From Nitrospirota bacterium (GTDB taxonomy: Bacteria > Nitrospirota > Thermodesulfovibrionia > UBA6902), in assembly GCA_016217725.1 (NCBI GenBank), contig JACRHB010000220.1, positions 11,970 to 75,969 on the forward strand: a stretch of DNA of 64,000 bases, written 5' to 3'. Positions 7,435 through 36,873 of the stretch are shown piece after piece (the stretch's first letter is position 1; each line of letters opens with the position of its first letter). The notes under the pieces were generated by a model, which saw only the letters and a program-made list of their open reading frames with translations, made no database searches and was not told the origin of the DNA. The translations under genes and the position numbers were made by a program.

Positions 7435-7436
7435 TG

Positions 7437-7796: not shown

Positions 7797-7810
7797 TGGT
7801 TCAATTCCTC

Positions 7811-8107
7811 CTATAACCAAGCAGTTTTATCGTATTCGTTGAAGATCAAATCTACTATATCGCTGTAACTTATAACCTTAACGTTGTCGGCGACGTCTGC
7901 ATTGCCCAGGCCCCTTGTCTGCAGGTCGTCTATCAGGACATAAAAGTCGGCTGTTTTTTGCAGCAGGGATGAGGGACTTCCTTTCTCTTTGGTTGTGGCA
8001 TGGTAAACGCCGTTTTGAACAAGTATAATGCAGAGCTTTTCAGGATTTAACCGGTCAAGAGTGTCTACATTAAGCCTGTAATCACTTACAAAAGCAGCTA
8101 ATTTCAT
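7811..8107 (-). CDS. DsrH/TusB-like protein (start at MKLAAF with AGGAGG RBS; ORF-track start 8188)
   Basis: 99 aa; ...LCIILVQNGVYHA... matches the DsrH/TusB LLLQDGV motif; GGAGG 7 nt upstream of ATG 8107. Confidence 0.6.
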   Translation of the reverse strand: MKLAAFVSDYRLNVDTLDRLNPEKLCIILVQNGVYHATTKEKGSPSSLLQKTADFYVLIDDLQTRGLGNADVADNVKVISYSDIVDLIFNEYDKTAWL

Positions 8108-8299
8108 ATGTACCTCCTGAATGGAAAATATGTTGGAAGTTTCTAAAAAAAGATGAATAATTTTATCCGGTAACCAGTTTTTTGTCAAGAAAGAATGAGG
8201 GTATAAAAATTCTTTATAAAAAAGCTTTGACGTAAGCCGTATCCGGTTAACGTGACCGTAAGAAACCGGACACGGACAACGGTCACGATCAACGTTTTT

Positions 8300-10487: not shown

Positions 10488-10499
10488 AAGTTGTTTTTT

Positions 10500-10555
10500 G
10501 TAGCGTCGGGGTTAATCCCCGACGATGAACGCCCCCGATAAACGAGGGCGCTACG
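10500..10555. repeat. GTAGCG...CGCTAC twin-hairpin element between tyrA and hisC
   Basis: gtagcgtcggggttaatccccgacgatgaacgcccccgataaacgagggcgctac. Confidence 0.55.
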
Positions 10556-11648: not shown

Positions 11649-11651
11649 GAG

Positions 11652-11710
11652 GAAGTTGTTAGTTGTTAGTTGTTAGTCCAAAAACTAAAAACTAACAACT
11701 AACAACTTTT
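11652..11710. repeat. (GTTGTTAG)n/(CTAACAAC)n palindrome between pheA and hisC (same family as 3162-3213)
   Basis: gaagttgttagttgttagttgttagtccaaaaactaaaaactaacaactaacaactttt. Confidence 0.65.
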
Positions 11711-11713
11711 TGT

Positions 11714-12781: not shown

Positions 12782-13047
12782 GATGAAGGTTAATTTAGCA
12801 ATTACCCCCGGATTTTTCAAGGGATGGGCTTTTAACTTAAGAACGGCAGTTATATCCACAGATTTCACAGATAAAGACAATGACATAAATGAGATAGTCA
12901 CATATTGTATATTCACCCAAAAGGTGAAAGGCAAAAGTCAGTTAAGCTTTTAATAACTCTGTGATAATCTGCGTTAATCTGTGGATAAATGCTTTTTTTA
13001 GGTTTAAGGATTTGTAGAAGCAAAAAACCGGCCTTGGCAGGAGTCAG

Positions 13048-13126
13048 GAGTTAAGAGTTAAGAGTTAAGAGTTAAGAGTTGAGAGTTAACGGGCTCTAAA
13101 ACTTTTAACTTTTAACTTTCAACTTC
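13048..13126. repeat. (GAGTTA)n ... (AACTTTTA)n imperfect palindromic word-repeat; overlaps the stop of the Mo-oxidoreductase gene
   Basis: gagttaagagttaagagttaagagttaagagttgagagttaacgggctctaaaacttttaacttttaactttcaacttc. Confidence 0.6.
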
Positions 13127-16100
13127 TTTAATCATCCTCACCATCACGTCCCCGAACCCGGGCATGCCGGTGAAAGGGGAAAGGTTATCCGGATCGAGGC
13201 ATTCATTGATATTCGGAATGTATTCGGAGACATTATTTATAAAACCCGGGCCGGAAGCCTTTTGTCCGCCGGGACCGAATGCGGTCTTGATGACGCCCGG
13301 CATTACTTCTTCCGTCAGAAAAACTTTCCCGCTCACCCGCTTTTTGAAGGGCGTTTCGAGCGCTATGACGTCTCCGTTTTTAACACCCAGCCGCTCGCCG
13401 TCGGAATTATTCACGGCTAAGACGGGAATGGAGCCCCCTTCATCCAGCCGCTTCATGCACTCCGTCTCCGTTTCCGCAAGATACGGGCAGACCGCCGTCA
13501 TCGTCATTGAATGATGGACCCTGCCTGTAATCAACTGGAACGGATACTCCCTGCTTATCTGTTTGTATTGTGAATTCTTCGGATTCCATTTGCAGTCTCT
13601 CCAGTAAAAGGTCGTCGGGAAACCGGTCCCGAGCCTTCTGTTGCTGTTTTCGAGGTAACCGAACTTGAATTCAAATTTCCCTGAGCCGGTCTTCGGATAT
13701 ACGCCGGATGAGGCGCCGGTTGACTTTCTGTGCCTGTAATAGCTTGCAGGCCATACCGCTGCGCCGTTATGTTTTCTGAGCCAGTCCACTGTGAGCGGTT
13801 CGCCCTGTTTGAGGAGCTTCTTTCCCCAGACGGCGGTCGGATTATCCGGTGCGCCGGTTATCAAACAGCCTTCCGGCAGATCCGGGTAAGGGAGCGGTTC
13901 TCCGACATTGTAATACCCCGGCGTTTCGGCAAGGAGCTCATTTATAAAATCCTCTTCTTCGTTATATCTCCGCCCGAAATCTTCCGCCCTGACGTCGGGA
14001 TCGCCGTTTCTTACTAATGCTTCGGAAAGGGTAAGCATAATTTCAAAGGGAGTCCTTGCTTCATAAAGAGGCTTGATTACCTGATCCCTGATCGCTATTT
14101 CCGGGCTCATTGTGTAAACGTCGCTGACTCCCATCCTTTCGAGATAACCGGCTTCGGGCAGAATTATGTCCGCATATTTCCCGGTTTCAGAAATGTGCGT
14201 GTCGATAAAGACTATAAGCTCAAGCTGGTATCTGCTTAAGGATTCCCCTTCATCCGTAGGGGCGGGTTTTAAACCCGCCCCTTCTCCTTCATCAAAAGGA
14301 AGGGGCAGGAGATCGTTTTTCAAGGTCAAGGCGTCAATCCAGTCCGGGGTGCTGCCTGCCGTCATGACGGGATTGCCCGCCCTTGTTATAAAGGCCTTTA
14401 CCGGGTAGGAATAGTCTTTAAAGACCCCGTGCTTTAGCTTTATCCCGTCCCTTATTTTTTGCGGCAGATCGGCCAACACGCCTTTCCATGCAGCCGGGAA
14501 ATCGCCGAAAAGATCTTTATGAAGCCCGGAAAGCTTGTCCGAAACCTCGCTCCCGTCAATATTTCTGCCGACGACCTTTTCCAGAAAATCTTTTCCTGCG
14601 GCTTTATCCCCCCTCCGGGGCTTTTGTGAATCGATGAATACAAGCCCTCCCGGCGTATCGATATTGCCCGTTATCAAGCAGAGCGCCGTCATGAGTATCG
14701 ATGAAACGTCGCCGTTTGCATGGTGTGAAACGCCGTGCATCCCCAGCTCGATCGAGGCGGGCTTTGTGCTGCCGAAAAGGTGCGATATCCTGATGATGTT
14801 TTCCGCGGATATCCCCGTCTTCTCCGCCGCCCATTCAAGGGTGAAAAATTTCATATCGTTTGAAGGGTCTCTCTTTTCCGAGTATGAAAGGAGCGCGTCT
14901 TTGAATTCCTCCCAGCCGTTTGTGTAATTTTTTATGAAATCGTGATCTATATATTTCTGCTCCGGATCATTCTGGATGATGTAATGGAGCATTGCCGCAA
15001 GCAGCGCCGCATCCGTCCCCGGTGTTATGGGAAGCCATATGTCCGCATGAGCGGCGGAATTGGTATATGCGGGGTCAATCACAATATACATGCATCCGTT
15101 TTCTTTTGCCGCAGGTATCCCCCGGGACATGTAATTGAATCTCGTCGCCACAAACGGGTTGGCCCCGAGATTCAGGATGAGCTTTGCGTCATGCTCCCTT
15201 TTGAGATGCAGCCCGCCGTCGTCATCTCTGATCAATAAAGGCCGTTGAACGTCGGGCAGCGGTCTTTCATCGCCTAACATAAGGCCCTGTCCCCATCTGC
15301 GGTTGGGATCGCAAATGCTGCCGTGGTTGTATGTGTTCGGAGTGCCGAAGGCATGAAACAGCCTGTAATACGCCTCTCTGTCGGTCACGTCGCCGCAGTC
15401 TAAAAAAACGGATTCCGCCCCGTATCTGTTTTTTATCTCGAGCAGCTTCTTTGCAATATAATCGGAAGCCTCCTCCCACGTGATTTCCTTCCATTTATCC
15501 TCGCCCCTTTCCCCGGTCCTTATCAGAGGGGTTTTTATCCTGTGAGGAGAGTATGTAAGCTGCAGCCCGGAAGCGCCCTTTGCGCAGAAGGCCCCGTTGT
15601 TTACAAGTGTATGCGGACTGCCGTATATTTTTTTGGCAATGCCGTTGTCAACAAGCACGGATATCCCGCATTCGGAAGGGCACATGGCGCATGATGAATA
15701 TCTTGATTTTAATGTGCCTTCTGTCTGTTCAGGAGATTTCTTTACCTTAATGCGTCGGGTAGATTTTGTGTCTGAGGGGATCGTATAATCCTTCAGCGGA
15801 GCATTGCAGACGTCACCTTTAAAGATGTAAAAGACCGAGGGGTTGGTCCCGAGCTCGGGATTGAGGACTTTTAACTGATGCTTGGAAAGCTCAGCCGATA
15901 TTTCACTTTTGGGGTCGTTTATGTCGCCGAAAAGCATCGCCCTCCCCATGCAGCTCTGCGCACAGACTGGCTGAAGACCCCTTGTAATTCTTTCATAGCA
16001 GAAATCGCATTTCTCGGCCTGTCCCGTGCTCGGGCTTATCTCGATCGCGTTATAAGGGCATTTATCCTCGCACATCTTGCAGCCGATACAGCCGCTCCCA

Positions 16101-24041: not shown

Positions 24042-25115
24042 ATGCCGAAAACAAATGAAGCGACTGATACGGATTTGAAAGTAATAGAGTGGCTTCAGCA
24101 GGTCGACCGGGAACGAGGGTGACGTCTTTGATAAACGCTGATGACATAAAAATCCTTATCAAAGAAGGGGAAGGGCTTACCGTCGAATTCAAAGAGCGTT
24201 TTACGTCGCGCATTGATGAAGATATTGTTGCATTTGCAAACACCAAGGGCGGGATAATTATTCTGGGCGTCAGAGATGACCGGACTGTAAGCGGCGAGAA
24301 ACTGACAAATGATCTTAAAGCCCGCATCAATTCCGTTGCAAGGAACTGTAATCCCCCGGTTCAGGTAAAGATAAAACAATTACAGAACATCATAGCCATA
24401 GAAGCGCCTCAGGGGGAGGAGAAACCGTATAGTTGCAGTTCCGGTTAATGCCGCCGTACTTTTCCTGATGAAGCATTTAAACCGCCGCAGCGAAATAAAA
24501 GGCATAAATCGTAACGACGTCTATGAGATACCTTTTGAGGCCTTGCGCGAGGCAATCGCCAACGCAATAATTCATCGGGACTACAGCGTGCGCGGCACAA
24601 GTCTTATGGTTGAAGTATATGACGACAGAGTTGAGATAATAAATCCGGGCATATTCCCGGGACGTCAAATGAAAGATTTCGGCAAGATTTCCGTTCGGAG
24701 AAACGAACGTATTGCCGACCTCTTTTTCCGTATGGATAAGGTGGAGCGCGCAGGTACGGGAATAAGGCGGATGAAAGAGGCAATGGCGGAGGCCGGCTTG
24801 CCTGTGCCGGACATTAGACAGACGGATTTTTATACAATTATATTTAAACGGCCAATTGAACGGGCCGGGGTAAAGGTCGGAAGAAAGTCGGAGAGAAAGT
24901 TGGGTGAAAAGTTGGGTGAAAAGTTGGGTGAAAATGAAAAAAGAGTTTTAGAAATTATTGTAAAAAATAAGTTCGCAACAATAACTGAGCTTTCCAGGTC
25001 ATTGGGAATAAGCACGACCGCTGTAGAAAATAATCTTGCAAAACTGAAAGCAAAAGAGATCATCAAACGCATAGGCCCTGATAAGGGAGGACATTGGGAG
25101 ATTATCGACTGCTAA
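24042..25115 (+). pseudogene. AlbA_2 (Schlafen-like) plus HATPase_c_4 plus HTH transcriptional-regulator-family gene, disrupted by frameshifts (fragments 24042-24122, 24089-24448, 24468-25115 in three frames)
   Basis: N-terminal AlbA_2 signature (GEGLTVEFKERFTSRIDEDIVAFANTKGGIIILGV), then a RecG-C-terminal-like ATPase domain (NAIIHRDYSVRGTSLMVEVYDDRVEIINPG) and a wHTH; homologues are single ~450-aa ORFs. Also contains a (GGGTGAAAAGTT)x3 tandem repeat at 24895-24936. Confidence 0.6.
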
Positions 25116-25284
25116 ATTTCAAAAACGATTTGATATTGTGTCGAAGGCAAATGAAGCGGCTGATGCGGATTTGGAAGCTGTTGAGAGGCAAAAGAGGGTT
25201 AGCAAGGCTTTCGTCTTTTTCAGAACTTTAAACTTTTATCAATTTTAAAGTAAAATTATCGAAGACAATTTTCAAGAGGAGATT

Positions 25285-26304
25285 ATGGATAACATAACTG
25301 TTAACCTTGATGGCATTCCAACTGAAATCAAACGATTAAAAATTCCCCTTAAGAAACTTATCCTCGATATAGAAAACCCCCGCATACAATATTTTCTTGA
25401 TACTCGCTTGAATGATGATGTAACTCAAGAGAAAATCAAGTTTGCTTTGGCTGAAGGCAATGACCAATACGAAAAGCTGAAAGAGCATATAGAAAGAAAT
25501 GGCGGCATTTACGATCCGATATGGGTTGTGCCCAAAGACGAATATTTTGTTGTCATCGAAGGCAACACAAGAGCTTTCATCTATGAGGAGTTGTCTGAAA
25601 AATATGTTAATGATGAGAAGTGGCATTCTATTGATGTATATCTTTTGCCATATAAGATCAATCGAAACGTTATTAATTTTATTCGATTGGAAAAGCACCT
25701 CTTTGGGCCTACACCGTGGGATGCTTATGAGAAGGCAAGAGAACTTTATCGACTAAATACAGATGAAGATTACTCACTGAAGCGACTCGAGCAACTAACG
25801 AAATTAAAAGCATCTGACATCAGAAATAATATTCAGGCTTTTATGGATATGGAGAAACAATATCTCCCTAAATACAATAAACCGGCTGAAAGACTCAAGT
25901 TCAGTTACTTTGTTGAATTCAGGAAAAATAAAGAACTGAAACGTATGGTCAAAGAGGGAAAAGTTTCACTTATGGATTTTTGTGATTGGGTTGGCGAAGG
26001 GAAGTTCAGACGCGGTGAAGATATACGTAAACTTCCATTAGTGCTTAAAGATGAACAATCAAGGCAAGCGCTTATTGATGATAGTTTTCAGGCAGCTCTT
26101 GATCAGTTGGAACAAAAGAACCCGGCGGCGAAATCAAAGCTTTTTGAGAAGATAGAGGATGTAGTTGAAGGACTTGAAGGTCTTCCTTTTGGCGAATTGG
26201 ACGAAATTAAAAGAGGACAACAACCGGCTAAGGTTGATTCCCTAAAAAGACTGCATTATGTGACAAAAAATCTTTTGGAAGATATAGGCACTCTTACTCA
26301 ATAG
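25285..26304 (+). CDS. ParB/Srx-fold (ParB N-terminal nuclease-like) domain protein, island gene 1
   Basis: ParB box-like LILDIENPRIQYF and arginine-finger-like VVIEGNTRAFIY; paralogous to 28124..29170 (shared ENPRI, V(I/V)EGNTR, WDAYEKA); ~33% GC. Confidence 0.55.
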   Translation: MDNITVNLDGIPTEIKRLKIPLKKLILDIENPRIQYFLDTRLNDDVTQEKIKFALAEGNDQYEKLKEHIERNGGIYDPIWVVPKDEYFVVIEGNTRAFIYEELSEKYVNDEKWHSIDVYLLPYKINRNVINFIRLEKHLFGPTPWDAYEKARELYRLNTDEDYSLKRLEQLTKLKASDIRNNIQAFMDMEKQYLPKYNKPAERLKFSYFVEFRKNKELKRMVKEGKVSLMDFCDWVGEGKFRRGEDIRKLPLVLKDEQSRQALIDDSFQAALDQLEQKNPAAKSKLFEKIEDVVEGLEGLPFGELDEIKRGQQPAKVDSLKRLHYVTKNLLEDIGTLTQ

Positions 26305-26711
26305 TGGCTGGGAACAGACATCAATTTATTCTTGGTTTGGTTGTTAAGAAGATGCGGGAAGAAGGGGCGGAGCTTTACGGCATTGATGGTAACTATCCAG
26401 GGCTCTTCGGCGAAAAAGTGCCATTGCCGCCTCAAATATTAAGACACCGCCCCGATGCGATAGGAATAAAAAGTAATGGGCAATTATGCATAGGGGAAGC
26501 AAAAACAGAGGGGGATATTCTCAATACAAGGACATATGAGCAGTTGCAGGACTTCACCAGTGTTGAAATAAACGGCTCAAAGTGCGAAGTATTTGTTGGC
26601 GCACCGCAATCCAGTGAAAATAATTTTGGAAAAAGTCTGGAGAAAACCGGATTGAAAGGATGTGATAATCTCCATGTACTTTATATTCCAGACGAAATAA
26701 TCAATGATTAA
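26304..26711 (+). CDS. small PD-(D/E)xK nuclease-fold-like protein, island gene 2
   Basis: 135 aa; ...HRPDAIGIKSNGQLCIGEAKTEGD gives the D...(E)xK spacing typical of restriction-endonuclease-like folds; start overlaps the stop of gene 1. Confidence 0.4.
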   Translation: MAGNRHQFILGLVVKKMREEGAELYGIDGNYPGLFGEKVPLPPQILRHRPDAIGIKSNGQLCIGEAKTEGDILNTRTYEQLQDFTSVEINGSKCEVFVGAPQSSENNFGKSLEKTGLKGCDNLHVLYIPDEIIND

Positions 26712-28134
26712 AGAGAAACAGCTTTTTGAACCAAAGACACAAGCCCTTCCACATCAAATAGAAGCTACTAATTATATTAATAATCACCAGGAGGTAGCTT
26801 TATTTGATGAGCAGGGATTGGGAAAAACAAAGATCGTCATTGATTCATTATGCTGTTCAATGAAGCACGGTGAAATTGAAGGGGTGCTTGTGGTATGTCC
26901 CATGTCTCTTATATACAATTGGGAGCAGGAGGTGCATAAACATTCTTTTCTTATTCCGGTTGTGCTTAAGGGCAGTGATAGAGAAAAAAGATATAAATTC
27001 ATGACAGGCGCAAACTTTTATATCACCAATTATGAAGCTGTTGTTGCTGAGACAAACAGAATAAAACGGTTTTGTAAGAGCCGCAAGGTTGCAATTGTGC
27101 TCGACGAATCTGCCCGCATAAAAGACCCTGCTACAAAAACCGCACAAGCGCTATTTGATTTGAGACCATTTTCAACAAAGAGAATAATCATTACCGGAAC
27201 CCCTGTTGCGAATAAGCCGATTGATCTATGGTCACAGTTTTATTTCCTTGATGGCGGGAAACTGTTCAGTGAAGACTTTAATGATTTCAAGGCAGAATTC
27301 AATGAGCGGCATACCTTATACAAGGATAATCTCGCTGAATTAAACACCATTGTTTCAGCCAACTCTCTCCGTCGCTGCAAAGACGATGTACTTGAACTTC
27401 CTGATAAGAGATTCATCAACGTATATGTCCGTCTTAAAGGGAAGCAGCTTGAACTCTACAATCAACTTCGCGAGGAATTAAAAATTGAAGTGCAGGACAT
27501 GGAGGGGAATGTTTTTGTTGATGAGGCCGAAAATATTCTCAAGAAATTACTCAGACTGACACAGATTGCAAGCAATCCTCTTTTAATTGATAAGGGGTAT
27601 GATGAGACTCCTTCCAAATTTATTATGCTTGATGACTTGCTCAACGATATTGCAGCAAGAAAGGAAAAGGCTATAATTTGGACAGGCTTTGTTGAAAATA
27701 TAATTATTTTAAAAAACAGGTTCAAACAATATAAGCCATTAATCATTCATGGTGATATTCCGGTTAAGGAACGGGCAGAAGCGGTCAAGGTCTTTCAGGA
27801 GTCAGAGAACAATATTATAATGATTGCAAATCCTTCTGCTGCACGTGAAGGGCTTACACTTACGAAGGCGAATAATGCGATTTACGTAGACAGAAATTTC
27901 AATCTTGTAGATTATTTGCAATCACAGGATAGAATACATAGAATATCTCAGACAAAAGAGTGTAATATATTCAAAATTCTTGCAAAAGATACAATTGATG
28001 AATATATTGATAGGGTCATTGATGTAAAAAAAGAAATAGCTGGTTATGTTCAAGGCGATTTAAAGAAAGTAAAAGTTGAAAGCCTTAATTTTCTTTTAAA
28101 CAAAACTGAACTCTTATGTATTCTTGGGGGGTAA
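26704..28134 (+). CDS. SNF2-family DEAD/DEAH-box helicase (compact, 476 aa), island gene 3
   Basis: Walker A DEQGLGKT, DExH VLDESARIKD, SNF2 motif TGTPVANKPIDLW, helicase-C motif VI QSQDRIHRISQ; 8-nt overlap with gene 2. Confidence 0.85.
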   Translation: MIKEKQLFEPKTQALPHQIEATNYINNHQEVALFDEQGLGKTKIVIDSLCCSMKHGEIEGVLVVCPMSLIYNWEQEVHKHSFLIPVVLKGSDREKRYKFMTGANFYITNYEAVVAETNRIKRFCKSRKVAIVLDESARIKDPATKTAQALFDLRPFSTKRIIITGTPVANKPIDLWSQFYFLDGGKLFSEDFNDFKAEFNERHTLYKDNLAELNTIVSANSLRRCKDDVLELPDKRFINVYVRLKGKQLELYNQLREELKIEVQDMEGNVFVDEAENILKKLLRLTQIASNPLLIDKGYDETPSKFIMLDDLLNDIAARKEKAIIWTGFVENIIILKNRFKQYKPLIIHGDIPVKERAEAVKVFQESENNIIMIANPSAAREGLTLTKANNAIYVDRNFNLVDYLQSQDRIHRISQTKECNIFKILAKDTIDEYIDRVIDVKKEIAGYVQGDLKKVKVESLNFLLNKTELLCILGG

Positions 28135-29170
28135 TGTGCCTGTAGAAACAATCACCGTATTAGGCAGAGATATAACTTATGAAATAAAAAATGTTGATAT
28201 ACACAACCTTGAATACTATCCGGAAAACCCTCGAATCAACTATATAATCAGCAGATATCCTCGTGGGAAAGTCACGCAGGATTTCATTGAACAAGAACTC
28301 TTAAAGTTAGATTCAACAAAGGAAAGGATAAAAGACCTCGAAGAAAATAAAGGTCTTTTAGATGAAGTCTATGTCGTTGAAAATAAAGTGGTCGAGGGAA
28401 ATACGCGGCTCTGTGCTTACAGAAGGTTGAGTCGAAAATATCCTGATGACACGCGATGGAAACGCATCAAATCCCGTATTCTTAAAGGTAAGATCAAAGA
28501 TGAAGAGCTTTTCTATATACTTGGCACTTTTCATATTAAAGGAAAGACAGAATGGGATGCATATGAAAAGGCCGCATATATACACAAAATGATCAGGATC
28601 CTCAATAAAAATCCTGAAGACATTGCAAAGCAATTAGGGAAACAGAAAAAGTCTATAGAAGCCATGCTAAGGGCATATGACGTTATGTCGAAAAAATACC
28701 TTACATCCTCTAATGAACCATCACTTGTAAACGGTGCGAGAGATGAACTTAAGAAATACAGTTACTTTGAGGCATTTTTTCTCCAAAAAGAACTGGCAAA
28801 AAAATCAGAGGATACTCCTGACTTTATCGATCAGTTTGTTGAATGGGTAAAGGAAGATAGGTTCAAGAAGGCGCAGAATGTTCGAGAGTTGCCAAAGATA
28901 TTAAGTCATAAGAAGGCGACGAAGGCTTTTTATGAAGGGGATGCTGAGGATGCATTTGATGAAGCCAAGCATATTCTTTATGAGCATAAGCCGGAGAAGG
29001 TTGACAGATTCTATAAAAAGGTAAGAGAATTTCGAGAGTTGATCCACGAGGCTGAGGCGTTTAAAATAAGAGATGAAATTGAGAGCAACAAGAATAAGAA
29101 AAATGAGTTAAGAGAGTGTTATAAAGATTTAAAGAGGTTTTGTAAGGAAGTGGGATTGGATGCTCAATAA
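28124..29170 (+). CDS. ParB/Srx-fold domain protein, paralog 2, island gene 4
   Basis: LEYYPENPRINYI and VVEGNTRLCAYRRL motifs; 11-nt overlap with the SNF2 gene. Confidence 0.55.
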   Translation: MGGNVPVETITVLGRDITYEIKNVDIHNLEYYPENPRINYIISRYPRGKVTQDFIEQELLKLDSTKERIKDLEENKGLLDEVYVVENKVVEGNTRLCAYRRLSRKYPDDTRWKRIKSRILKGKIKDEELFYILGTFHIKGKTEWDAYEKAAYIHKMIRILNKNPEDIAKQLGKQKKSIEAMLRAYDVMSKKYLTSSNEPSLVNGARDELKKYSYFEAFFLQKELAKKSEDTPDFIDQFVEWVKEDRFKKAQNVRELPKILSHKKATKAFYEGDAEDAFDEAKHILYEHKPEKVDRFYKKVREFRELIHEAEAFKIRDEIESNKNKKNELRECYKDLKRFCKEVGLDAQ

Positions 29171-30185
29171 GCCAAAGGAGAGGATCATGAAAAGAACATT
29201 TAAGGCGATTGAAATGGTACAAAATAAATGGAAGTTTTATGTGTTTAGTATAAAATCCGACTTGTTATACAAAATAGCTTATATCAGTAGGAGACACGAG
29301 AATAAGGAAGAAGGATATCAGCGAAATCTGTCAAAAAAACGCGCAAGAGAAATATATGATTATATTTTTACCTTACACGGTGTTATCCCCAATAATATTA
29401 TTCTGAACTTTGATACGAATCTAAATTATGATACAAAAAGTCAGACAATTTCCTTTAAAGATGATGAAAATATTGCGTGGATTATTGATGGTCAACATAG
29501 GCTGTATGGCTTGTCTTTAAGCAAAAAACCCATTGATGTTATGGTGGTAGCTTTTGAGAAATTAGATATACAAAATCAAGCAAAAATATTTAGGGTAATT
29601 AACTCCACCCAAAAAGGTGTTAATGCGTCACTTATCTATGATCTTATTGACTTGGTTAAAGATGCGAGTTTTCTTGAGGAACGTGCTCATGAACTTGCAA
29701 AAAAACTCAATAGCGACCCGGAGTCACCATGGTATATGCAAATAAAAATGTTGGGGATAGGGGCTGGCCTGATTTCTCAAAGCGCATTTGTAAATAACTT
29801 AATACTTTTGTTGGATGAAGAAAGACGGGCACCATTGCAGGTATATACAGAAGAAGAGCAATATGGCATATTAAAAAATTATTTCAATGCAGTCAAATAC
29901 TCATTCCCAAATGACTGGGGACAGGCGAATTCCTTACTCACTAAGACAATGGGATTTTACTCATTAATAGCCGTACTGCCAACTGTTTTACAAATGTGCT
30001 CAGGCAACTTTACGACTGATTCGGTAATTAAAATACTTGAACCAATAAAGGATTATAATTTTGCAAGTAGTGGACCATTGAAAGGCGTTTCCGGCAAGGC
30101 TGGGGTTGAGAGAATCACATCTGAAATAAACTCTCTTTTAACAGCAACAAGGAAATCAAAGAAGACGCCGATAATAAAGCTTTAA
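29160..30185 (+). CDS. DGQHR-domain protein (DndB/DpdB-like ParB-superfamily), island gene 5
   Basis: GYQRNLSKKRAREIYDYI ... WIIDGQHRLYGL: the diagnostic DGQHR motif, plus an FxxxN motif (FRVINSTQ); 11-nt overlap with gene 4. Confidence 0.8.
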   Translation: MLNKPKERIMKRTFKAIEMVQNKWKFYVFSIKSDLLYKIAYISRRHENKEEGYQRNLSKKRAREIYDYIFTLHGVIPNNIILNFDTNLNYDTKSQTISFKDDENIAWIIDGQHRLYGLSLSKKPIDVMVVAFEKLDIQNQAKIFRVINSTQKGVNASLIYDLIDLVKDASFLEERAHELAKKLNSDPESPWYMQIKMLGIGAGLISQSAFVNNLILLLDEERRAPLQVYTEEEQYGILKNYFNAVKYSFPNDWGQANSLLTKTMGFYSLIAVLPTVLQMCSGNFTTDSVIKILEPIKDYNFASSGPLKGVSGKAGVERITSEINSLLTATRKSKKTPIIKL

Positions 30186-30187
30186 TC

Positions 30188-31021
30188 ATGTTCCATAAAA
30201 TCGTTGCTAATTTTAGAGAAGTTAGTGGAGTGTGTGAAGGGTTTGTAAAAGATGCTGTCAGAACAAATCCTGCATTACCGTTATCTTTAATTACACATAA
30301 ATTCCAACCGTTTTATTCTAATGAGTTGAAAAATAAATTTTTCAAAGAAGTTAACCTTTATTTAGACAAGGCCATGTATCAATACATAATAAGTCGTTCC
30401 CTGTTGCATGAAGGTATTTTTTCTTGGGGAGCAGTAACACAATATTATGCCAATTTCTTTGCAATTTCTGGATTAATAAGGCTACATGAAAATGGATTTT
30501 CAAGGATAGGCAATTTAGATGTAGAGGTTCAACAGCAATCTGATATATATGAAATTAGAAAAACTAAAACAGAGGGACTACACAGAATTGTTTGGTCTAA
30601 ATTTTATGCCCTATACAAAGGGTTTGATTATAAGCCTCAGATCTTTTATACAGTCTATTCACCAATTAATAATAACAATTATTTTGAATCAGACAGGCGC
30701 AATGACATTAACTACAATCCAGCATCAGGATATCAAGAAATTTATCAAACGTATAGCACGGTGAAGTCTTTAATAAAAGAGCGCACAAAAGATGCCTATT
30801 CTGCGGACAAGATTGAATTAGCAAATGAATGGATTGATTCAGATACAAGAACTCAATACAGAATCAGATTGCTCGCAAATATTATTTCTGAAATAGACGC
30901 ACTTAGTCATTTCCCTACTCACGTCAAGGAACGATTAATAAATAGAGAGAAATTTATTCAACGATATGAAACGGACAAAAGATATCGGGTTCGTTTCTTA
31001 GGCTGGTTAACAGGTGAATAG
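30188..31021 (+). CDS. hypothetical protein (277 aa), island gene 6
   Basis: No recognisable motif; AT-rich codon usage as in the rest of the operon; 3-nt gap from gene 5 and 8-nt overlap with gene 7. Confidence 0.5.
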   Translation: MFHKIVANFREVSGVCEGFVKDAVRTNPALPLSLITHKFQPFYSNELKNKFFKEVNLYLDKAMYQYIISRSLLHEGIFSWGAVTQYYANFFAISGLIRLHENGFSRIGNLDVEVQQQSDIYEIRKTKTEGLHRIVWSKFYALYKGFDYKPQIFYTVYSPINNNNYFESDRRNDINYNPASGYQEIYQTYSTVKSLIKERTKDAYSADKIELANEWIDSDTRTQYRIRLLANIISEIDALSHFPTHVKERLINREKFIQRYETDKRYRVRFLGWLTGE

Positions 31022-32396
31022 AATGAATATACTTCTTGTTGAACCAGGTTACAAAAATAAATATCCACCTCTTGGTCTTATGAAAATATCTGCATTCCAC
31101 AAACAGCGCGGTGATAACGTACGTTTTATAAAGGGACTAAACAAAGAGGTCAAAGCACAAATGTGGGATAGAATTTATATAACCACCCTGTTTAGTTTTT
31201 ATTGGAATGAAACTATTAATACTATCAGATACTATGAATACAGCATACAAGACCCTCAGAATCTTTTTATAGGCGGGCCGATGGCAACGCTTATGTCAGA
31301 CGAAATAGAGAAAGAAACAGGATATAGGCCGGTAAAGGGATTACTGAATGAAAAAAGAAAATTGAGGTTGCCGAATGATTATAAAGTTGACAGCCTGGTT
31401 CCCGACTACAGCATCCTTGAACAAATAGAGTACAAGTATCCGGCATCAAACGCCTATTTTGCTCATGCAACAAGAGGCTGTATAAGAAAATGCCCGTTCT
31501 GCGCTGTTCCCAAAATTGAACCTTTTTATACAGATTATATCCCCTTAAAGAAACAGATAATAATGATTAATGAAAAATATGGAGAAAAGAAAGACCTTCT
31601 ATTGCTGGATAACAATGTCCTTGCATCTTCACAATTTGACAAAATAATTGATGAAATCAAAGAAGCGGGGTTTTATAGGGGAGCTAAATTAAATAACAGG
31701 AACAGATACGTAGACTTTAATCAGGGAATAGATCTGAGACTCCTTACGAAAGAGAAAATGAGGCTGTTGGCTGAACTTTCCATAAAGCCTTTGCGAATTG
31801 CCTTTGACCACATTAAATTGGAGAAGGAATACGTTAAAAGAGTAGAGTGGGCTTCTGAATTCGGAATAAACAATTTATCAAATTATATCCTATATAACTT
31901 TCATGACACTCCAGAAGATTTTTATAGACGGTTAGAAATAAACATTGAACTGAATGAAAGATTAGGGACTAAAATATTTTCATTTCCGATGAAATATATC
32001 CCCATAGATAATAGGGATCGAAAGCATAAAGGCAAGTATTGGAATCTTCGATACTTGAGAGGTATTCAATGTATTTTACAAGCCACACACGGAGTCGTAA
32101 GTCCCCAAAGAGAATTTTTTCATGCAGCATTCGGGAGAAACGTCGAAGCTTTCAAAAAGCTTCTTTTAATGCCTGATAACTATATTATCTTTCGCGAAAA
32201 TCACAAGAATAATGGTACTGCTGATTGGGCTAAGATATACGATTCCTTATCTAATGAGCAACAAAAGGAATTTCACGACATAGTTTTTGAGAATCAATTC
32301 AATAATGGATTGCTGTCGAAATATTCAAAGATAAATATTCTCTTAGCTCACTATAAGGTGCCGAAACAACAAGTTTCTCTAAAAGAGCTTTCTTAG
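31014..32396 (+). CDS. radical SAM enzyme with an N-terminal B12-binding-like (Rossmann) domain, island gene 7
   Basis: Canonical CxxxCxxC (ATRGCIRKCPFCAV); the N-terminus MNILLVEPGYKNKYPPLGLMKISAFHKQRGDNVRFI resembles the N-terminal domain of class-B radical SAM enzymes; ~34% GC. Confidence 0.7.
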   Translation: MNRMNILLVEPGYKNKYPPLGLMKISAFHKQRGDNVRFIKGLNKEVKAQMWDRIYITTLFSFYWNETINTIRYYEYSIQDPQNLFIGGPMATLMSDEIEKETGYRPVKGLLNEKRKLRLPNDYKVDSLVPDYSILEQIEYKYPASNAYFAHATRGCIRKCPFCAVPKIEPFYTDYIPLKKQIIMINEKYGEKKDLLLLDNNVLASSQFDKIIDEIKEAGFYRGAKLNNRNRYVDFNQGIDLRLLTKEKMRLLAELSIKPLRIAFDHIKLEKEYVKRVEWASEFGINNLSNYILYNFHDTPEDFYRRLEINIELNERLGTKIFSFPMKYIPIDNRDRKHKGKYWNLRYLRGIQCILQATHGVVSPQREFFHAAFGRNVEAFKKLLLMPDNYIIFRENHKNNGTADWAKIYDSLSNEQQKEFHDIVFENQFNNGLLSKYSKINILLAHYKVPKQQVSLKELS

Positions 32397-32604
32397 TGTA
32401 GAAAGATTTCCAACCTGACAACTATGGCAAGCCATAACACAGAATACAATCCACCCGGAGAAATAATGCAGGAGGAAAATCTTGACTAGGCAGGTAACCC
32501 CGAACAGATACGCCACCCTTATTGAACGTCTTGCGGACATTATCCATTTCGCATGGACAACCGCGCCCGCTTCTTGATATTTTCGTCGTCAAATAGCATG
32601 ATAT

Positions 32605-33777
32605 ATGACGACGATGGCGACAAAGGCGAAAAATCACGATGATATTTATATCGATAGAATATTGAGCCTGCCGGGGCTGTTGGAGAAAAAATCCTATTTC
32701 CTTTTCGGGCCCCGCCAGACGGGGAAATCGTCCCTTATCCGGCATACCCTGAAGGGCGCAAAGGTCTACGACCTCCTGGACACATCGATATTTCTGGCTC
32801 TGAGTCAAAACCCAGGCCGTCTGTCCCAGGAATTGAGCGCCGGAGACCGGATCGTGGTAATCGATGAAATACAGCGCCTGCCCATTCTGCTCAATGAGGT
32901 TCACCGGCTGATTGAAGAGAGAGGCCTTCGTTTTTTGCTCACCGGCTCGAGTGCCCGGAAGCTCCGCGGCGGCGGCGTGAACCTGCTTGGCGGGAGGGCG
33001 CGTACGAAAAATCTGCATCCTCTCACCTGCCGGGAGCTCGGGCGGCATTTCGACCTGTTCCGTGCAATCGAACGCGGCTTGCTGCCGTCCATATATTTTT
33101 CGGATGATCCACGCGCGGATCTTCGCGCCTATGCAGGCTCTTACCTGCAGCAGGAGATTATTGCCGAAGGGGCCGCCCGCAATGTGCCTGCCTTCAGCCG
33201 TTTCCTGAAGGTTGCCGCATTATGCAACGGCACGATCGTCAATTTTACTAATATAGCCAATGATGCCCAGGTGCCCCGCACGACAGTGTACGAGTATTTC
33301 GAGATCCTCAAAGACACTCTTATCCTCCACGAGCTTCCTGCCTGGCGCCGGTCATTAAGGCGCAAGCCTTTGGCCTCCTCGAAGTACTATTTTTTTGATA
33401 TCGGCATAGTGTCGGAGCTGCAGGGTCGAAGATTCAGGCCCGGCACGCCTGAATTCGGAGAGGCCTTTGAGACATATATTATGCATGAGCTCCGAAGCTA
33501 TATCGATTATATTTCTGCCGAGCCTCTCAGCTACTGGCGGTCGACGTCAGGTTTTGAGGTGGATTTCATCCTGGGCGATCATACGGCCATTGAGGTGAAG
33601 GCAAAAGAGAATGTATCGGTACAGGAGCTTAAATCGCTGCGTGCCCTTAAGGAAGAAAAGATATTGAAGCGCTACCTTTGTGTAAGTCTCGAATCCCGTA
33701 CAAGAACGGTCGACGGAATTATTATTCTGCCATACCGGAAATTTCTCGACGGCTTATGGAGCGGAGAGTATTCATGA
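32605..33777 (+). CDS. AAA-family ATPase (AAA_14 plus DUF4143 architecture)
   Basis: Walker A GPRQTGKS, Walker B VVIDEIQ; C-terminal DUF4143-like region; GC-rich (~60%). Confidence 0.85.
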   Translation: MTTMATKAKNHDDIYIDRILSLPGLLEKKSYFLFGPRQTGKSSLIRHTLKGAKVYDLLDTSIFLALSQNPGRLSQELSAGDRIVVIDEIQRLPILLNEVHRLIEERGLRFLLTGSSARKLRGGGVNLLGGRARTKNLHPLTCRELGRHFDLFRAIERGLLPSIYFSDDPRADLRAYAGSYLQQEIIAEGAARNVPAFSRFLKVAALCNGTIVNFTNIANDAQVPRTTVYEYFEILKDTLILHELPAWRRSLRRKPLASSKYYFFDIGIVSELQGRRFRPGTPEFGEAFETYIMHELRSYIDYISAEPLSYWRSTSGFEVDFILGDHTAIEVKAKENVSVQELKSLRALKEEKILKRYLCVSLESRTRTVDGIIILPYRKFLDGLWSGEYS

Positions 33778-33836: not shown

Positions 33837-34367
33837 ATGGAAATCAAAATCAACAAAAGCACATTGTCACTGGTTGAAGGCGATATTACAAAACAGGACA
33901 CGGACGCAATAGTGAATGCGGCGAATAAAACCCTTCGCGGCGGAGGCGGCGTTGACGGGGCGATCCACAGGGCGGGCGGCCCGAAGATCCTTGAGGAATG
34001 TATAAAGATTGGCGGCTGCGAGACCGGCGAGGCTGTGATAACCACGGGCGGGAATCTCAAGGCCAAATATGTAATCCATACGGTCGGTCCGGTTTACAGG
34101 GACGGCCTGCACAATGAGCCGAAGCTTCTTGAGAACGCTTATAGAAACAGTCTGAAACTTGCTTCGTCGAAGGGTATAAAAAGCATCGCCTTCCCGTCAA
34201 TAAGCACGGGAGCTTACGGTTATCCATTGGAAGATGCAGCGGAGATCGCATTAAAGACCGCGATTAATTATCTCTGGGAGCATCCCGACATAGAACTGGT
34301 CCGTTTTGTCCTTTTCGGACAGAAGACGCTTGAGGTTTATGAGAAGAAACTGAAGCCACTGGTTTAG
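33837..34367 (+). CDS. macro-domain protein (O-acetyl-ADP-ribose deacetylase, YmdB/MacroD-like)
   Basis: 176 aa; DIT..DAIVNAAN..L.GGGGVDGAIHRAAG and ...AFPSISTGAYGYP motifs. Confidence 0.9.
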   Translation: MEIKINKSTLSLVEGDITKQDTDAIVNAANKTLRGGGGVDGAIHRAGGPKILEECIKIGGCETGEAVITTGGNLKAKYVIHTVGPVYRDGLHNEPKLLENAYRNSLKLASSKGIKSIAFPSISTGAYGYPLEDAAEIALKTAINYLWEHPDIELVRFVLFGQKTLEVYEKKLKPLV

Positions 34368-35388: not shown

Positions 35389-36873
35389 TCAGCCTATTCC
35401 TTCGTACTTCTTCATCCTCCAGTATTCCGCATTGAGGGTCTCCACGATATAGTCAACCCTGCGCGTTCTTATCAGCTTTCCGAGCGCGTCAAGAAAGACC
35501 TTCGGGTGTCTGAAGAGTATGGTGAACAGTATGGAGTAGAAGCTTATGTTGGTCTTCTGTGTGAAATAATTCTTCACAAAGAAGGCGTTCTGCAATTTTC
35601 TTCGGATGTCCCTGAGCTCCTCTTTCTTGAACGTTATCGCCATGAGGGGAAGCTCGGGCTGTCTGTGCGCCCATATTTCGGAGAACGGCAGATTGGGATC
35701 CAGCCAGCCGTTTTTAATAGCCATGTCATAAATGTCGGTTCCGGGATAGGGCGTCAGGAAATAAAAGGCGGTATAGTCCGCCTGGATATCTTTTGCCACC
35801 TGGAAGCTCTGCTCTATATCGTCTCTGGTTTCTTCAGGGTTTCCGATAATAAAGGTTGCCAGGGTCCTGATGTCGAGGTCCTTGCAGAGTTTGAAGGAAT
35901 GTCTTATCTGCGCGGTCCTGTCTCCGGCGCCTCCTTTACCGAGCACCCTGAGGATCTTTTCGGAGCCGCTTTCAACGCCGAAATCAAGCTGCACGAGACC
36001 GCTGTCTTTCATCATTTTCATCAAACCCATGTCCGTCTGGTCCACCCTGGACTGGCAGCCCCACTTGATGTTCAGGTTTCTACGCTTTAATTCCTCGCAA
36101 TATTCTTTCACCCATTTGGGACTCAGCGTAAAGGTGTCGTCGCAGTAATATATTCCCTTTATGTCGTAATTTTTATAGAGATATTCTATTTCATCAACTA
36201 CGTTCTTCACCGAGCGTCTTCTTGTTTTTCTGCCGAAGATGTTATGGCTGCCGCAATAGATGCATTTGAAAGGGCAGCCCCTGCTTGTAACAATGGTGGT
36301 CTGGTTCTTGGTTGCGTAGCCTCTTATTATTCCGGGCGGCTTGAGGTACGGCTTCATGTCGATAAGGTGCCGCGCAGGGAAAGGGATGGTATCCAGGTCT
36401 TGTATCATTTCGCGCCTGCCGTTATCTACGATGCCGACGTTGTCGCGGTACATGACGCCTTTGACGCCTGCAAGGCTTTGGTTGTTTCCCAGCTTCTCGC
36501 ATACCTCGACAATTGTGTCTTCGCCTTCGCCGACCACTATAAAATCAACGCCGAACTCTTCCATGGTCTCTTTCGGCTTTACGGTCGTATGAACTCCGCC
36601 GGAGCAGAATATTTTGCCGGGCAATTCCTTTTTCAGGTTTTGCATCAGATGCAGCGCCCTCTGGTATCCTACCGTCAGGAAGCTGAGGCCTATCAAGTCA
36701 GGGTTGAAATCCTTTATCTCATTCAGCATGCTTGCCTGATATTCGGGGTCTGAATCATAAATCTGAACGGCGTGTCCCGCCTTTTCAAGGACTGCGGCGA
36801 TATACATCAGTCCCAACGGCGGCACAACGTTGTTGCCGTCTAACACTTGAGCATTAACCAATGTTACTCTCAT
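35389..36873 (-). CDS. B12-binding domain radical SAM protein (class B)
   Basis: N-terminal B12-binding Rossmann fold (VTLVNAQ...VVPPLGLMYIAAVLEKAGHAVQIYD) and CxxxCxxC (SRGCPFKCIYCGS). Confidence 0.85.
   Translation of the reverse strand: MRVTLVNAQVLDGNNVVPPLGLMYIAAVLEKAGHAVQIYDSDPEYQASMLNEIKDFNPDLIGLSFLTVGYQRALHLMQNLKKELPGKIFCSGGVHTTVKPKETMEEFGVDFIVVGEGEDTIVEVCEKLGNNQSLAGVKGVMYRDNVGIVDNGRREMIQDLDTIPFPARHLIDMKPYLKPPGIIRGYATKNQTTIVTSRGCPFKCIYCGSHNIFGRKTRRRSVKNVVDEIEYLYKNYDIKGIYYCDDTFTLSPKWVKEYCEELKRRNLNIKWGCQSRVDQTDMGLMKMMKDSGLVQLDFGVESGSEKILRVLGKGGAGDRTAQIRHSFKLCKDLDIRTLATFIIGNPEETRDDIEQSFQVAKDIQADYTAFYFLTPYPGTDIYDMAIKNGWLDPNLPFSEIWAHRQPELPLMAITFKKEELRDIRRKLQNAFFVKNYFTQKTNISFYSILFTILFRHPKVFLDALGKLIRTRRVDYIVETLNAEYWRMKKYEGIG

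Follow-up and report, generated by a model that had tools for sequence, protein, structure and literature searches.

A mobile operon of ParB-like, nuclease, SNF2, and radical SAM genes as a candidate two-module restriction-modification-like system

Analyzing a 64,000-nucleotide stretch of a Nitrospirota contig (JACRHB010000220.1; hereafter, the window), we found that the seven-gene operon at 25285–32396 contains what appears, from comparison with related loci (labeled L), to be a conserved five-gene core of ParB-like, nuclease, SNF2, ParB-like, and radical SAM (rSAM) genes. Across phyla, these genes fall into two modules: M1, with the ParB-like, nuclease, SNF2, and second ParB-like genes, and M2, with the rSAM gene and, optionally, genes for a DGQHR protein and a GHKL ATPase. 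The original prediction of a seven-gene operon thus stands for the window, but the widespread unit is the five-gene core, to which g5 and g6 are added as a cassette. We propose, with about even confidence, that the operon is a restriction-modification-like two-module defense system using a new kind of DNA mark. To our knowledge, no radical SAM enzyme is known that installs a self-mark on DNA.

All seven genes are intact forward-strand open reading frames at the predicted positions. Paralogs A and B of a ParB/Srx-superfamily protein are encoded by g1 (25285–26304, 339 aa) and g4 (28124–29170, 348 aa), a small PD-(D/E)xK protein of the restriction-endonuclease fold by g2 (26304–26711, 135 aa), a stand-alone SNF2-family ATPase/translocase by g3 (26704–28134, 476 aa), a DGQHR-domain protein (DndB/DpdB-like, ParB superfamily) by g5 (29160–30185, 341 aa), a protein of unknown function by g6 (30188–31021, 277 aa), and the radical SAM enzyme by g7 (31014–32396, 460 aa). 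An alternative g7 start is possible at the ATG at 31023. The predicted tight packing is borne out, with junction distances of -1, -8, -11, -11, +2, and -8 nt from g1 to g7, although the supposed 3-nt gap at 30185/30188 is a 2-nt gap. Upstream of g1 are a weak promoter-like site on the forward strand, TTTAAA-18-TAAAAT (25227–25256; 9/12 matches in a consensus scan), and, read from the upstream sequence, an AGGAG ribosome-binding site immediately 5' of the ATG. The operon is AT-rich relative to its surroundings, but with a GC content of 0.364 versus 0.441 and 0.475 in two 10-kb flanks, the contrast is smaller than the 33–35% versus about 50% first claimed; GC3 is 0.27–0.39 for operon genes versus 0.56–0.61 for flanking genes. 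As predicted, a decayed AlbA_2/Schlafen-like gene (split SLFN_AlbA_2/HATPase_c_4/wHTH, 24089–25115) lies on one side and an AAA-ATPase/macro-domain segment (AAA_14+DUF4143 ATPase, 32605–33777; macro-domain gene, 33837–34367) on the other.

Judged by comparative evidence, the open reading frames are genuine genes and not chance ORFs: their counterparts are found in many genomes, comparison with L006, the closest relative, gives a low dN/dS (0.08–0.13), indicating purifying selection, and DNA homology to relatives begins at about 25273 and stops at about 32427, the edges of the operon. All seven are full-length against their homologues, and the identical seven-gene arrangement occurs in other phyla at about 70% DNA identity. 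The operon has been horizontally acquired: insertion sites of its relatives vary from genome to genome, with toxin-antitoxin (TA) pairs, an OLD-family nuclease, an MmeI-type enzyme, and IS elements as neighbors, and copies are present on plasmids and proviral contigs.

The domain assignments of M1 agree with those predicted. The N terminus of g1 forms a ParB-like domain in which the motifs NPR (aa 31–33) and EGNTR (aa 92–96) are invariant, and an HTH-like region follows it; g4 has the same motifs at aa 35–37 and 91–95, and the two proteins are paralogous (about 28–31% identity, E about 1e-28). A g1/g4 family profile of 21 homologues matches Noc (7ng0/7nfu, E 2.6e-5) and ParB (7o0n, E 0.077), supporting both ParB-like calls. 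Moreover, g4 has a weak HTH_ParB match (E 0.013), and its orthologue in R. leguminosarum WSM1325 carries the RefSeq name "ParB N-terminal domain-containing protein." A partition-locus reading was rejected: the operon has no ParA partner, and with the ParB partition model the score is 16.8 bits, short of the 58.45 required. The catalytic-type residues of g2 (D51, E65, and K67) are conserved, leaving the D-ExK signature intact. The SNF2 protein g3 matches PF00176 (E 2.7e-40) and Helicase_C (PF00271, E 2.5e-14), has intact GLGKT, DESA, and QSQDRIHR motifs, and aligns with the helicase parts of the ZorD and DpdE models, far under their equivalog cutoffs.

In M2, g7 narrowly exceeds the PF04055 cutoff (29.8 versus 29.5 bits) and has one CxxxCxxC cluster (CIRKCPFC; C156/C160/C163), a Rossmann/flavodoxin-like, B12-domain-like N-terminal domain, and a family-specific C-terminal region. 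Its fold is nearest to class B and AprD4-type enzymes, in line with the class-B-like N-terminal domain originally assigned, with about equal matches to cobalamin (Cbl)-dependent TsrM and MgmA, Cbl-free AprD4, and MiaB/RimO. Cobalamin is at most a possible cofactor of g7; a Pfam search gave no PF02310 match for g7, whereas an unrelated neighboring gene (35392–36873) scores 88 bits. Identity to class B enzymes and relatives (TsrM, MgmA, TokK, CysS, and AprD4) is only 10–16%, and the substrates of these known enzymes are small molecules, peptides, and proteins, in contrast to the DNA-modifying role that we propose for g7. The DGQHR call for g5 is well founded, with a TIGR03187 score of 181.2 bits (cutoff, 58.85) and the DGQHR motif at aa 110–114, but g5 is below the cutoffs for DpdB (NF041060, 118.9 versus 300 bits) and DndB (TIGR03233, 14 versus 328 bits). 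For g6, profile searches of Pfam, NCBIfam, PADLOC, and PDB gave no match, and only 22 clusters occur in a set of 5.8 billion proteins; it has invariant GLHR, RRNxxNY, and RIRLL motifs and lies between the DGQHR and rSAM genes in every locus examined.

Together, g5 and g6 represent one of several swappable accessory cassettes in a variable slot that extends from the g4 stop codon to the g7 start codon (29171–31013). In L006, with DNA identities of 91% over g1–g4 and 87% over g7, the slot region is exchanged and holds another DGQHR gene and one for a 762-aa metallo-beta-lactamase-fold protein. The slot is empty in L002–L005, L125, L126, and L132, the five-gene form without g5, and contains other cargo in L001, L122, L124, L127, and L130. 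A DGQHR gene lies directly 5' of the rSAM gene, often with overlapping stop and start codons, in L008, L009, L013, L015, L031, L036, and L102, and also on rhizobial and Novosphingobium plasmids, a coupling that parallels DpdB-DpdA and DndB-DndCDE. One protein, P0346, looks like a DGQHR-rSAM fusion, but its N terminus is degenerate and it may be an artifact.

Mapping g1–g4 and rSAM genes across genomes, we found that they co-occur, in varied order and orientation, in at least eight phyla by our count, with carriers in Nitrospirota, Thermodesulfobacteriota, Spirochaetota, Alpha-, Beta-, and Gammaproteobacteria, Acidobacteriota, and Nitrospinota. The rSAM gene is present in every nuclease-seeded window-type contig that reaches beyond g4. 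The GHKL ATPase is found in most relatives and is missing from the window form and the minimal five-gene form. Among the carriers of the rSAM gene are R. leguminosarum WSM1325 and N. aromaticivorans DSM 12444.

Partners are also replaced. In two metagenomic contigs (L136 and L138), M1 loci lacking the rSAM gene have unrelated D12-class N6-adenine (Dam-like) DNA methyltransferase genes directly upstream and co-directional, one separated from M1 by 3 nt and encoding a DPPY motif (L136), the other scoring 224 bits (L138). Both methyltransferases match PD-Lambda-5_B, and g1 matches PD-Lambda-5_A; in L137, a close relative of one of these loci, no methyltransferase was seen in the 1.3 kb visible upstream. 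L033 is a single operon of an rSAM-GHKL pair with DrmA (537 bits), DrmB (178 bits), a NERD-UvrD helicase, and an Mrr nuclease, and no methylase was seen in the visible contig, whose upstream part is partly visible, so that one could lie further off. The original prediction left open DNA modification or nucleotide targeting; the swaps and the DrmA/DrmB embedding favor modification over nucleotide targeting and are best read as the rSAM enzyme marking host DNA, with M1 restricting DNA that lacks the mark.

Under this restriction-modification-like reading, M2 (here g7, g5, and g6, with the GHKL ATPase in most relatives) would place a covalent mark on host DNA, the DGQHR/ParB-like partner delivering the rSAM enzyme to its target much as DpdB brings DpdA to DNA. 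The paralogous ParB-like proteins of M1, probably NTP-dependent and DNA binding, would load on DNA, and the SNF2 translocase and small nuclease, recruited by them, would cut phage or plasmid DNA lacking the mark. We infer DNA as the rSAM substrate, the nature of the mark, its reading by M1, and phage defense from gene content and context. Consistent with this, all parts are DNA directed (ParB/Noc-like, DGQHR, SNF2, and restriction-endonuclease-fold D-ExK proteins) and the loci behave as mobile islands. M2 also occurs without M1 (L007, L011, L026, and pNL1), resembling orphan modification modules and favoring a marking role, and in L152 g1 is disrupted by an IS element while the rSAM-GHKL pair is intact, the direction of decay that restriction-modification logic tolerates. 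Against a uniform modification module, the five-gene form lacks both GHKL ATPase and DGQHR genes, and the window form lacks the GHKL gene.

The system is apparently unnamed, as predicted: no system defined in PADLOC or NCBIfam corresponds to the operon, and we found no paper naming it. Domain searches of the operon found no Dnd, Dpd, or TGT genes, also as predicted, and no methyltransferase domain; none of these was found in the neighborhoods of window-type loci L002–L004 and L021–L024, and for L001 the finds were limited to split N6_N4_Mtase fragments lying downstream. The operon shares with Dpd (7-deazaguanine; DpdA/B/C and DpdD-K) a two-module logic, horizontally mobile islands, and a DGQHR/ParB-like protein adjoining the modifying enzyme, and g3 is similar to the C-terminal portion of DpdE (PADLOC E 6e-44). 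However, it lacks TGT-like DpdA, DpdC, and preQ0 synthesis genes, the scores of g5 for DpdB and of g3 for DpdE fall far short of the equivalog cutoffs (300 and 500 bits, respectively), the putative modifier is a radical SAM enzyme, and two ParB-like proteins, a small nuclease, and SNF2 replace DpdD-K. In Dnd/Ssp (DndABCDE and DndFGH), a DndB-type DGQHR protein likewise accompanies modification genes, and the module for modification can be separated from the one for restriction (PMC10853773), as M2 is from M1, but the operon has no DndA, DndC, DndD, or DndE. SMC-like, PAPS-reductase, and cysteine-desulfurase genes were not found in the operon or related loci, the one exception being a sulfur-relay cluster near L002 that is unrelated. 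PD-lambda-5 (Vassallo et al. 2022), a ParB-like-domain protein with a D12-class methyltransferase, is a validated defense system that its authors regard as a compact restriction-modification and Abi system with broad protection (PMC9519451). The g1 N-terminal domain matches its A protein (PADLOC E 4.4e-9), with an alignment confined to the initial ~190 residues of the 473-aa model; PD-lambda-5 has two genes and a conventional methyltransferase, whereas the operon has a pair of ParB-like paralogs and a radical SAM enzyme, with nuclease and SNF2 encoded by genes of their own. DISARM (DrmA, DrmB, DrmC, DrmD/E, and DrmMI/MII) also combines an SNF2 helicase (DrmD class) with a DNA-modifying enzyme, the latter putative here, but the window lacks DrmA, DrmB, and DrmC, a SAM-dependent methylase is absent, and g3 reaches only 31.8 of the 610 bits required by the DrmD model. 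Finally, g3 aligns with the helicase half of Zorya ZorD (PADLOC E 3e-64), an SNF2 and Mrr-like nuclease protein comparable to g2 and g3 as separate genes, but ZorA, ZorB, and ZorC are absent, the NCBIfam ZorD model, whose cutoff is 1500 bits, gives 105.7, and the nuclease is a separate 135-aa protein.

Alternatively, the rSAM enzyme could be an effector or signal generator that makes a modified nucleotide, viperin-like and possibly from ParB-bound NTP, or directly modifies or damages invading DNA, with the ParB-like, SNF2, and nuclease proteins sensing and degrading foreign DNA. Viperins are prokaryotic rSAM defense enzymes, NTP binding is a property of ParB-family proteins, to which the g1/g4 profile points through Noc and ParB, the context is island-like and mobile, and the five-gene core has no recognized DNA-targeting partner dedicated to the rSAM enzyme except g4. 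Ophion is a further prokaryotic rSAM defense enzyme (bioRxiv 2025.09.30.679545). However, no similarity of g7 to viperin or any PADLOC defense rSAM model was found, methyltransferases hold the rSAM position in L136 and L138, the L033 pair stands in the place of the DISARM methylase, which fits modification better, and the rSAM-GHKL(-DGQHR) module also occurs without nuclease and helicase, making this alternative possible but rather unlikely.

Less probable still is a non-immune DNA-transaction or epigenetic module for chromatin organization, lesion repair, or element maintenance/partition that merely travels horizontally. Chromosome organization and repair also involve ParB-like proteins, SNF2 remodelers, and GHKL ATPases, spore photoproduct lyase is an rSAM enzyme repairing DNA, many copies are on large conjugative plasmids, and the L021–L024 operon is flanked by housekeeping genes. 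Yet the partition signature is missing, as noted above, the core includes a nuclease with a conserved active site, and g1 and the variant-locus methyltransferases match both PD-lambda-5 proteins; patchy distribution, atypical GC, variable cargo, and frequent TA, OLD, MmeI, and DISARM neighbors or partners also speak against it. A chance grouping, in which unrelated DGQHR and radical SAM genes merely happen to lie beside a ParB/SNF2 system, or a decayed remnant, is very improbable and largely refuted by the co-occurrence data: g5 and g6 are dispensable and the slot accepts unrelated cargo, but the ORFs are full-length with low dN/dS, the seven-gene arrangement recurs in other phyla, and the association of g1–g4 with rSAM holds over the phyla listed, through rearrangements.

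Seven forward-strand open reading frames (g1 to g7) fill positions 25285-32396 of the window, exactly where the original prediction had placed them: two ParB-like paralogs (g1 and g4), a small PD-(D/E)xK nuclease (g2), an SNF2 ATPase (g3), a DGQHR protein (g5), a protein of no known family (g6) and a radical SAM (rSAM) enzyme (g7). The close packing expected of them holds, with successive junctions of -1, -8, -11, -11, +2 and -8 nt, only the supposed 3-nt gap measuring 2 nt; an ATG at 31023 is an alternative start for g7. GC content is 0.364 in the operon versus 0.441 and 0.475 in its flanks, and GC3 is 0.27-0.39 in its genes versus 0.56-0.61 in neighbouring genes. DNA similarity to related loci starts at 25273-25285 and ends at 32377-32427, that is, at the operon edges, where no direct or inverted repeats of at least 9 nt were found. 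Since similarity is bounded by these edges and dN/dS is 0.08-0.13 for g2, g3, g4 and g7 against the closest relative (L006, from a Nitrospiraceae MAG), g1 to g7 are real genes that are under selection and were taken in as a single unit.

The genes on either side agree with their earlier description. Immediately 5' of the operon lies a forward-strand gene with SLFN_AlbA_2, HATPase_c_4 and winged-HTH domains (24089-25115), which is split in two ORFs (24089-24448 and 24468-25115) and is probably a decayed regulator; on the other side are an AAA_14/DUF4143 ATPase (32605-33777) and a Macro-domain gene. An AAA_14/DUF4143 ATPase stands beside the operon at three independent loci, the window and the related loci L021 (12439-13611) and L123 (9456-10583). 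It was rejected as an eighth component because the window and L021 copies are not homologous (no match at E<1e-5) and their orientation differs, and the adjacency is probably a coincidence or that of an island neighbour.

Among relatives with a window-like gene order and an rSAM enzyme of ~460 aa (window-type loci), we found an invariant set of ParB-like, nuclease, SNF2, ParB-like and rSAM genes, carried by Nitrospirota, Thermodesulfobacteriota, Syntrophaceae and Treponema; names among the matches alone point to anammox Brocadiaceae as further carriers. The rSAM gene is present in every nuclease-seeded window-type contig that extends past g4. What differs by locus is the content of the slot between g4 and the rSAM gene, which is empty in L002-L005, L125, L126 and L132; holds DGQHR and g6 in the window, L021-L024, L119 and L123; another DGQHR protein with a 762-aa MBL-fold protein in L006 and L116; a DndB-like protein with a 200-aa protein in L122 and L152; and an unannotated family, the second recurrent cargo, in L001 (9361-10032), L127 (4511-5134), L130 (4156-4773) and L124 (4846-6291). 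L006 and the window are 91% and 87% identical in the DNA flanking the slot and wholly different within it. Both the modularity and the mobility of the system are observed features of the loci.

Proteobacteria, Acidobacteriota, Nitrospinota and other groups also carry the g1-g4 block (M1), here with a second block (M2) of (DGQHR), rSAM (~525 aa) and GHKL ATPase genes; the two blocks may stand in any order or orientation to each other. M2 is found without M1 as well, with partners that vary by locus: a PIN-like (PIN_8) protein and a second GHKL ATPase in L011, L149 (pNL1) and L151 (Bradyrhizobium p187_1), and MmeI-type enzymes in L016. The same PIN-like/second-GHKL pair accompanies M2 in L150 (WSM1325 pR132505), where M1 is present too, and the larger versions of the system may have a third module in this pair. 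Two cultured strains are carriers, Rhizobium leguminosarum WSM1325 with complete M1 and M2 on pR132505, its gene set there being RLEG_RS34150-34120, and Novosphingobium aromaticivorans DSM 12444 with M2 and the PIN-like module on pNL1. At L152 7101-8990 (on OW818666.1, a chromosome of 4.9 Mb), an IS3-family element interrupts the g1 orthologue, and the nuclease, SNF2, second ParB-like and DndB-like genes and a convergent rSAM-GHKL pair are all intact.

Two distant M1 loci, L136 and L138, have no rSAM gene and carry a D12-class N6-adenine DNA methyltransferase immediately 5' of M1 and in the same direction, separated by a 3-nt gap and bearing a DPPY motif in L136, and scoring 224 bits with Pfam in L138. 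These methyltransferases are not close homologues of one another; both match PADLOC PD-Lambda-5_B, and g1 matches PD-Lambda-5_A. The swap of methyltransferase for rSAM is seen on two contigs only: L137, a relative of L136, has no methyltransferase within its visible 1.3 kb, and IMG/VR scans for further methyltransferase-bearing M1 variants with the L136 and L138 SNF2 proteins gave distant SNF2 proteins only. At L033, DrmA, DrmB, a NERD-UvrD helicase, an rSAM enzyme (698 aa), a GHKL ATPase and an Mrr-type endonuclease form one forward-strand operon (2999-14729) without M1, and the visible DNA of this DISARM-type operon holds no methylase; L033 thus seems to be a DISARM-like system with the rSAM pair in the methylase's stead. 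Together, the methyltransferase swap, the PD-lambda-5 matches and the L033 context indicate, at the level of gene content, that M1 is a putative restriction module and that the rSAM module would take the place of the DNA-modifying enzyme.

The components, their folds and their motifs are likewise observed. In the paralogs g1 and g4, the NPR and EGNxR motifs are invariant (alignment of 21 family members), and a g1/g4 profile matches, over the N-domain and HTH, both ParB and the CTPase Noc (E 2.6e-5), placing EGNxR on GERR. This match upholds the ParB-like call for the two proteins: as in the ParB/Srx superfamily, a ParB-type domain bearing a GxxR-type motif stands at the N-terminus and an HTH comes after it. 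Against g5, the same profile aligns by the motif alone (to DGQHR), without significance. A ParABS partition locus was rejected: the partition model TIGR00180 gives g4 16.8 bits versus a cutoff of 58.45 and does not match g1, and the operon has no ParA-like gene. The nuclease g2 has the fold of restriction endonucleases, its core strands carrying D...(D/E)xK; structure prediction was needed for it because profile searches of the PDB were not significant: a profile of 7 sequences gave Hjc at E=1, and one of 29 gave no relevant match. SNF2_N (PF00176, 138.7 bits) and Helicase_C (PF00271, 53.9 bits) both match g3, whose ATPase motifs GLGKT, DESA and QSQDRIHR are intact, which bears out its SNF2 assignment. 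The DGQHR call on g5 also stands, at 181 bits versus a cutoff of 58.85 on the generic DGQHR domain model, and g5 passes Pfam DndB (PF14072) at domain level only (50.4 bits). Relatives of g6 were detected in 22 clusters only, between DGQHR and rSAM in all loci examined; a profile search of the PDB returned nothing for g6, and hhalign found no relation to the other slot cargos.

The original prediction took g7 for an rSAM enzyme with a class-B-like N-terminal domain. Its rSAM identity is borne out: g7 carries CxxxCxxC as CIRKCPFC at aa 156-163, invariant in 40 homologues, barely passes the PF04055 Radical_SAM threshold (29.8 versus 29.5 bits), and in an AF2 model (pLDDT 86) has structural neighbours that are all rSAM enzymes. 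The modelled fold is nearest to TsrM, AprD4 and MgmA, then to MiaB and RimO, and matches TokK and isolated corrinoid-binding domains as well as the Cbl-free AprD4 and MiaB/RimO. For this candidate cobalamin-binding N-terminal domain, Pfam gives no PF02310 match in g7 and weak ones in its relatives (E 2e-4 to 1e-3). An internal contrast is provided by an unrelated minus-strand gene at 35392-36873 of the window, a canonical class-B rSAM gene with 88 bits for the B12-binding PF02310 and 78 bits for Radical_SAM. MiaB and RimO bind a second [4Fe-4S] cluster through three Cys of the N-terminal domain and have a TRAM domain. Invariant Cys of the g7 family are limited to positions 156, 160, 163 and 353, residues 1-150 having none, and g7 matches neither UPF0004 nor TRAM in Pfam; because the N-terminal Cys triad is missing, a MiaB/RimO-type methylthiotransferase was rejected.

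Comparison with named systems gave likenesses without membership. As had been claimed, DndA, DndC, DndD, DndE and DpdA/TGT are absent from the operon, none of the seven proteins matching them in Pfam, NCBIfam or PADLOC; no DpdA/TGT is listed near L001-L004 or L021-L024 either. For Dpd, g5 reaches 118.9 bits on the DpdB equivalog NF041060 (cutoff 300) and g3 22.5 bits on NF041062 DpdE (cutoff 500), the PADLOC DpdE matches to g3 span the shared SNF2 core only, and the operon has neither the DpdE/DpdJ helicases nor the DpdD-K restriction genes; the close DGQHR-rSAM coupling resembles DpdB-DpdA. For Dnd, g5 reaches 14 bits on the DndB equivalog TIGR03233 (cutoff 328). DISARM consists of a DrmA, DrmB and DrmC core, DrmD/E and a DrmM methylase. 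The window operon matches none of DrmA, DrmB and DrmC and scores 31.8 bits on DrmD (cutoff 610); only the relative L033 joins rSAM-GHKL to DrmA and DrmB. Membership in Dnd, Dpd, Zorya and DISARM was rejected by equivalog cutoffs and absent core genes. PD-lambda-5 is a defence system validated by experiment, seen by its authors as a compact RM+Abi system (PMC9519451). Of its two-protein set (A plus the D12-class methyltransferase B), g1 covers the first ~190 of 473 A-model positions (33.7 bits), the window operon has no methyltransferase, and B-like methyltransferases are confined to the variant loci L136 and L138. Ophion combines OpnA, PHP and PRTase (bioRxiv 2025.09.30.679545), whereas PHP and PRTase genes are missing from the operon and g7 has no viperin-type match; a viperin/Ophion-type rSAM defence was rejected on this composition and the lack of model matches, g7 matching no PADLOC model at E<0.1.

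Dpd and Dnd share with the operon the logic of a DGQHR-assisted modification module combined with a helicase/nuclease restriction module. By analogy, the operon system would work like Dpd, Dnd, PD-lambda-5 and DISARM, yet it falls outside all of them when membership is tested. PADLOC v2.0.0 and NCBIfam r20 hold no model for g1, g2, g6 or g7, and RefSeq names the orthologues 'radical SAM protein', 'DGQHR domain-containing protein', 'ParB N-terminal domain-containing protein' or 'hypothetical protein'. No description of the gene set was found in the literature, with subscription-journal papers mostly outside the scope of the search, and an earlier description is possible.

The interpretation of the operon as a DNA-modification or defence system is thus supported and sharpened. 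We propose a restriction-modification-like defence in which M2 marks host DNA and M1 cuts unmarked DNA, a reading whose chances we hold to be evenly balanced. In the window, g5, and perhaps g4 as well, would bring g7 to DNA to place the mark, and g6 would act as an accessory of M2; the g1/g4 ParB-like pair would load onto DNA and recruit the SNF2 motor together with g2, the nuclease, and these two would cut DNA without the mark. The substrate of the rSAM enzyme, the mark, its read-out and the immunity are what we infer here. Tentatively, and with rather more doubt than confidence, we suggest that the g7 family is the first rSAM enzyme to place a self-identifying covalent mark on genomic DNA, read by a ParB-like/SNF2/nuclease restriction machine; such a mark would be, for instance, a C-methyl or other radical-derived adduct out of reach of the SAM-dependent SN2 methylases. 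We would place the system with modification-restriction immunity, and the chance that its DNA modification chemistry is of a categorically new kind is, in our estimate, substantial though somewhat less than even. The gene content can also be read in other ways. The rSAM enzyme could be an effector or nucleotide-modifying enzyme inside a defence system, which we regard as unlikely; the genes could form a non-immune DNA-transaction module, which is less probable again; and an accidental juxtaposition of genes is hardly credible.

Natural DNA modifications for self/non-self discrimination form a short list of methylation, phosphorothioation and 7-deazaguanines. If the rSAM enzyme marks DNA, a new chemistry would join this list, and the class-B-like radical SAM group, which is large and poorly understood, would gain a nucleic-acid substrate. 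The recurrent, uncharacterised ParB-like/nuclease/SNF2 cassette would, if our proposal is true, acquire a job and a tie to PD-lambda-5, itself validated but mechanistically obscure; both the DNA modification chemistry and the class of R-M-like immunity would then be new, and the protein clusters involved would number in the hundreds, with carriers ranging from anaerobes to rhizobial plasmids. Such an enzyme, modifying DNA in a new and sequence-specific way, could also serve as a tool. The family is widespread (318 clusters), and since it is present in the cultured, tractable hosts WSM1325 and DSM 12444, the question is directly testable.

The g7 family is a discrete one, its 318 clusters being defined at 50% identity and E<=1e-30. 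Gut phage genomes (L053-L104; phage records Bacteroides phage LoVEphage, BKO1-TP3 and Clostridium phage phiCT453B) commonly encode a short rSAM family of ~290-300 aa that shares 24-32% identity with the first two thirds of g7, and the queried partner genes were not found by tblastn in the fetched flanks of these loci. Five rSAM homologues of ~800 aa (P0287, P0294, P0305, P0307 and P0322) have C-terminal extensions of ~380 aa with internal repeats, which match nothing in Pfam and show no relation to g6 or to the other cargo. An apparent DGQHR-rSAM fusion, P0346, has a degenerate N-terminus and is a doubtful hint only. Finally, the 862-aa rSAM homologue P0410 carries an intein (Hint and LAGLIDADG) within its rSAM N-terminal region.
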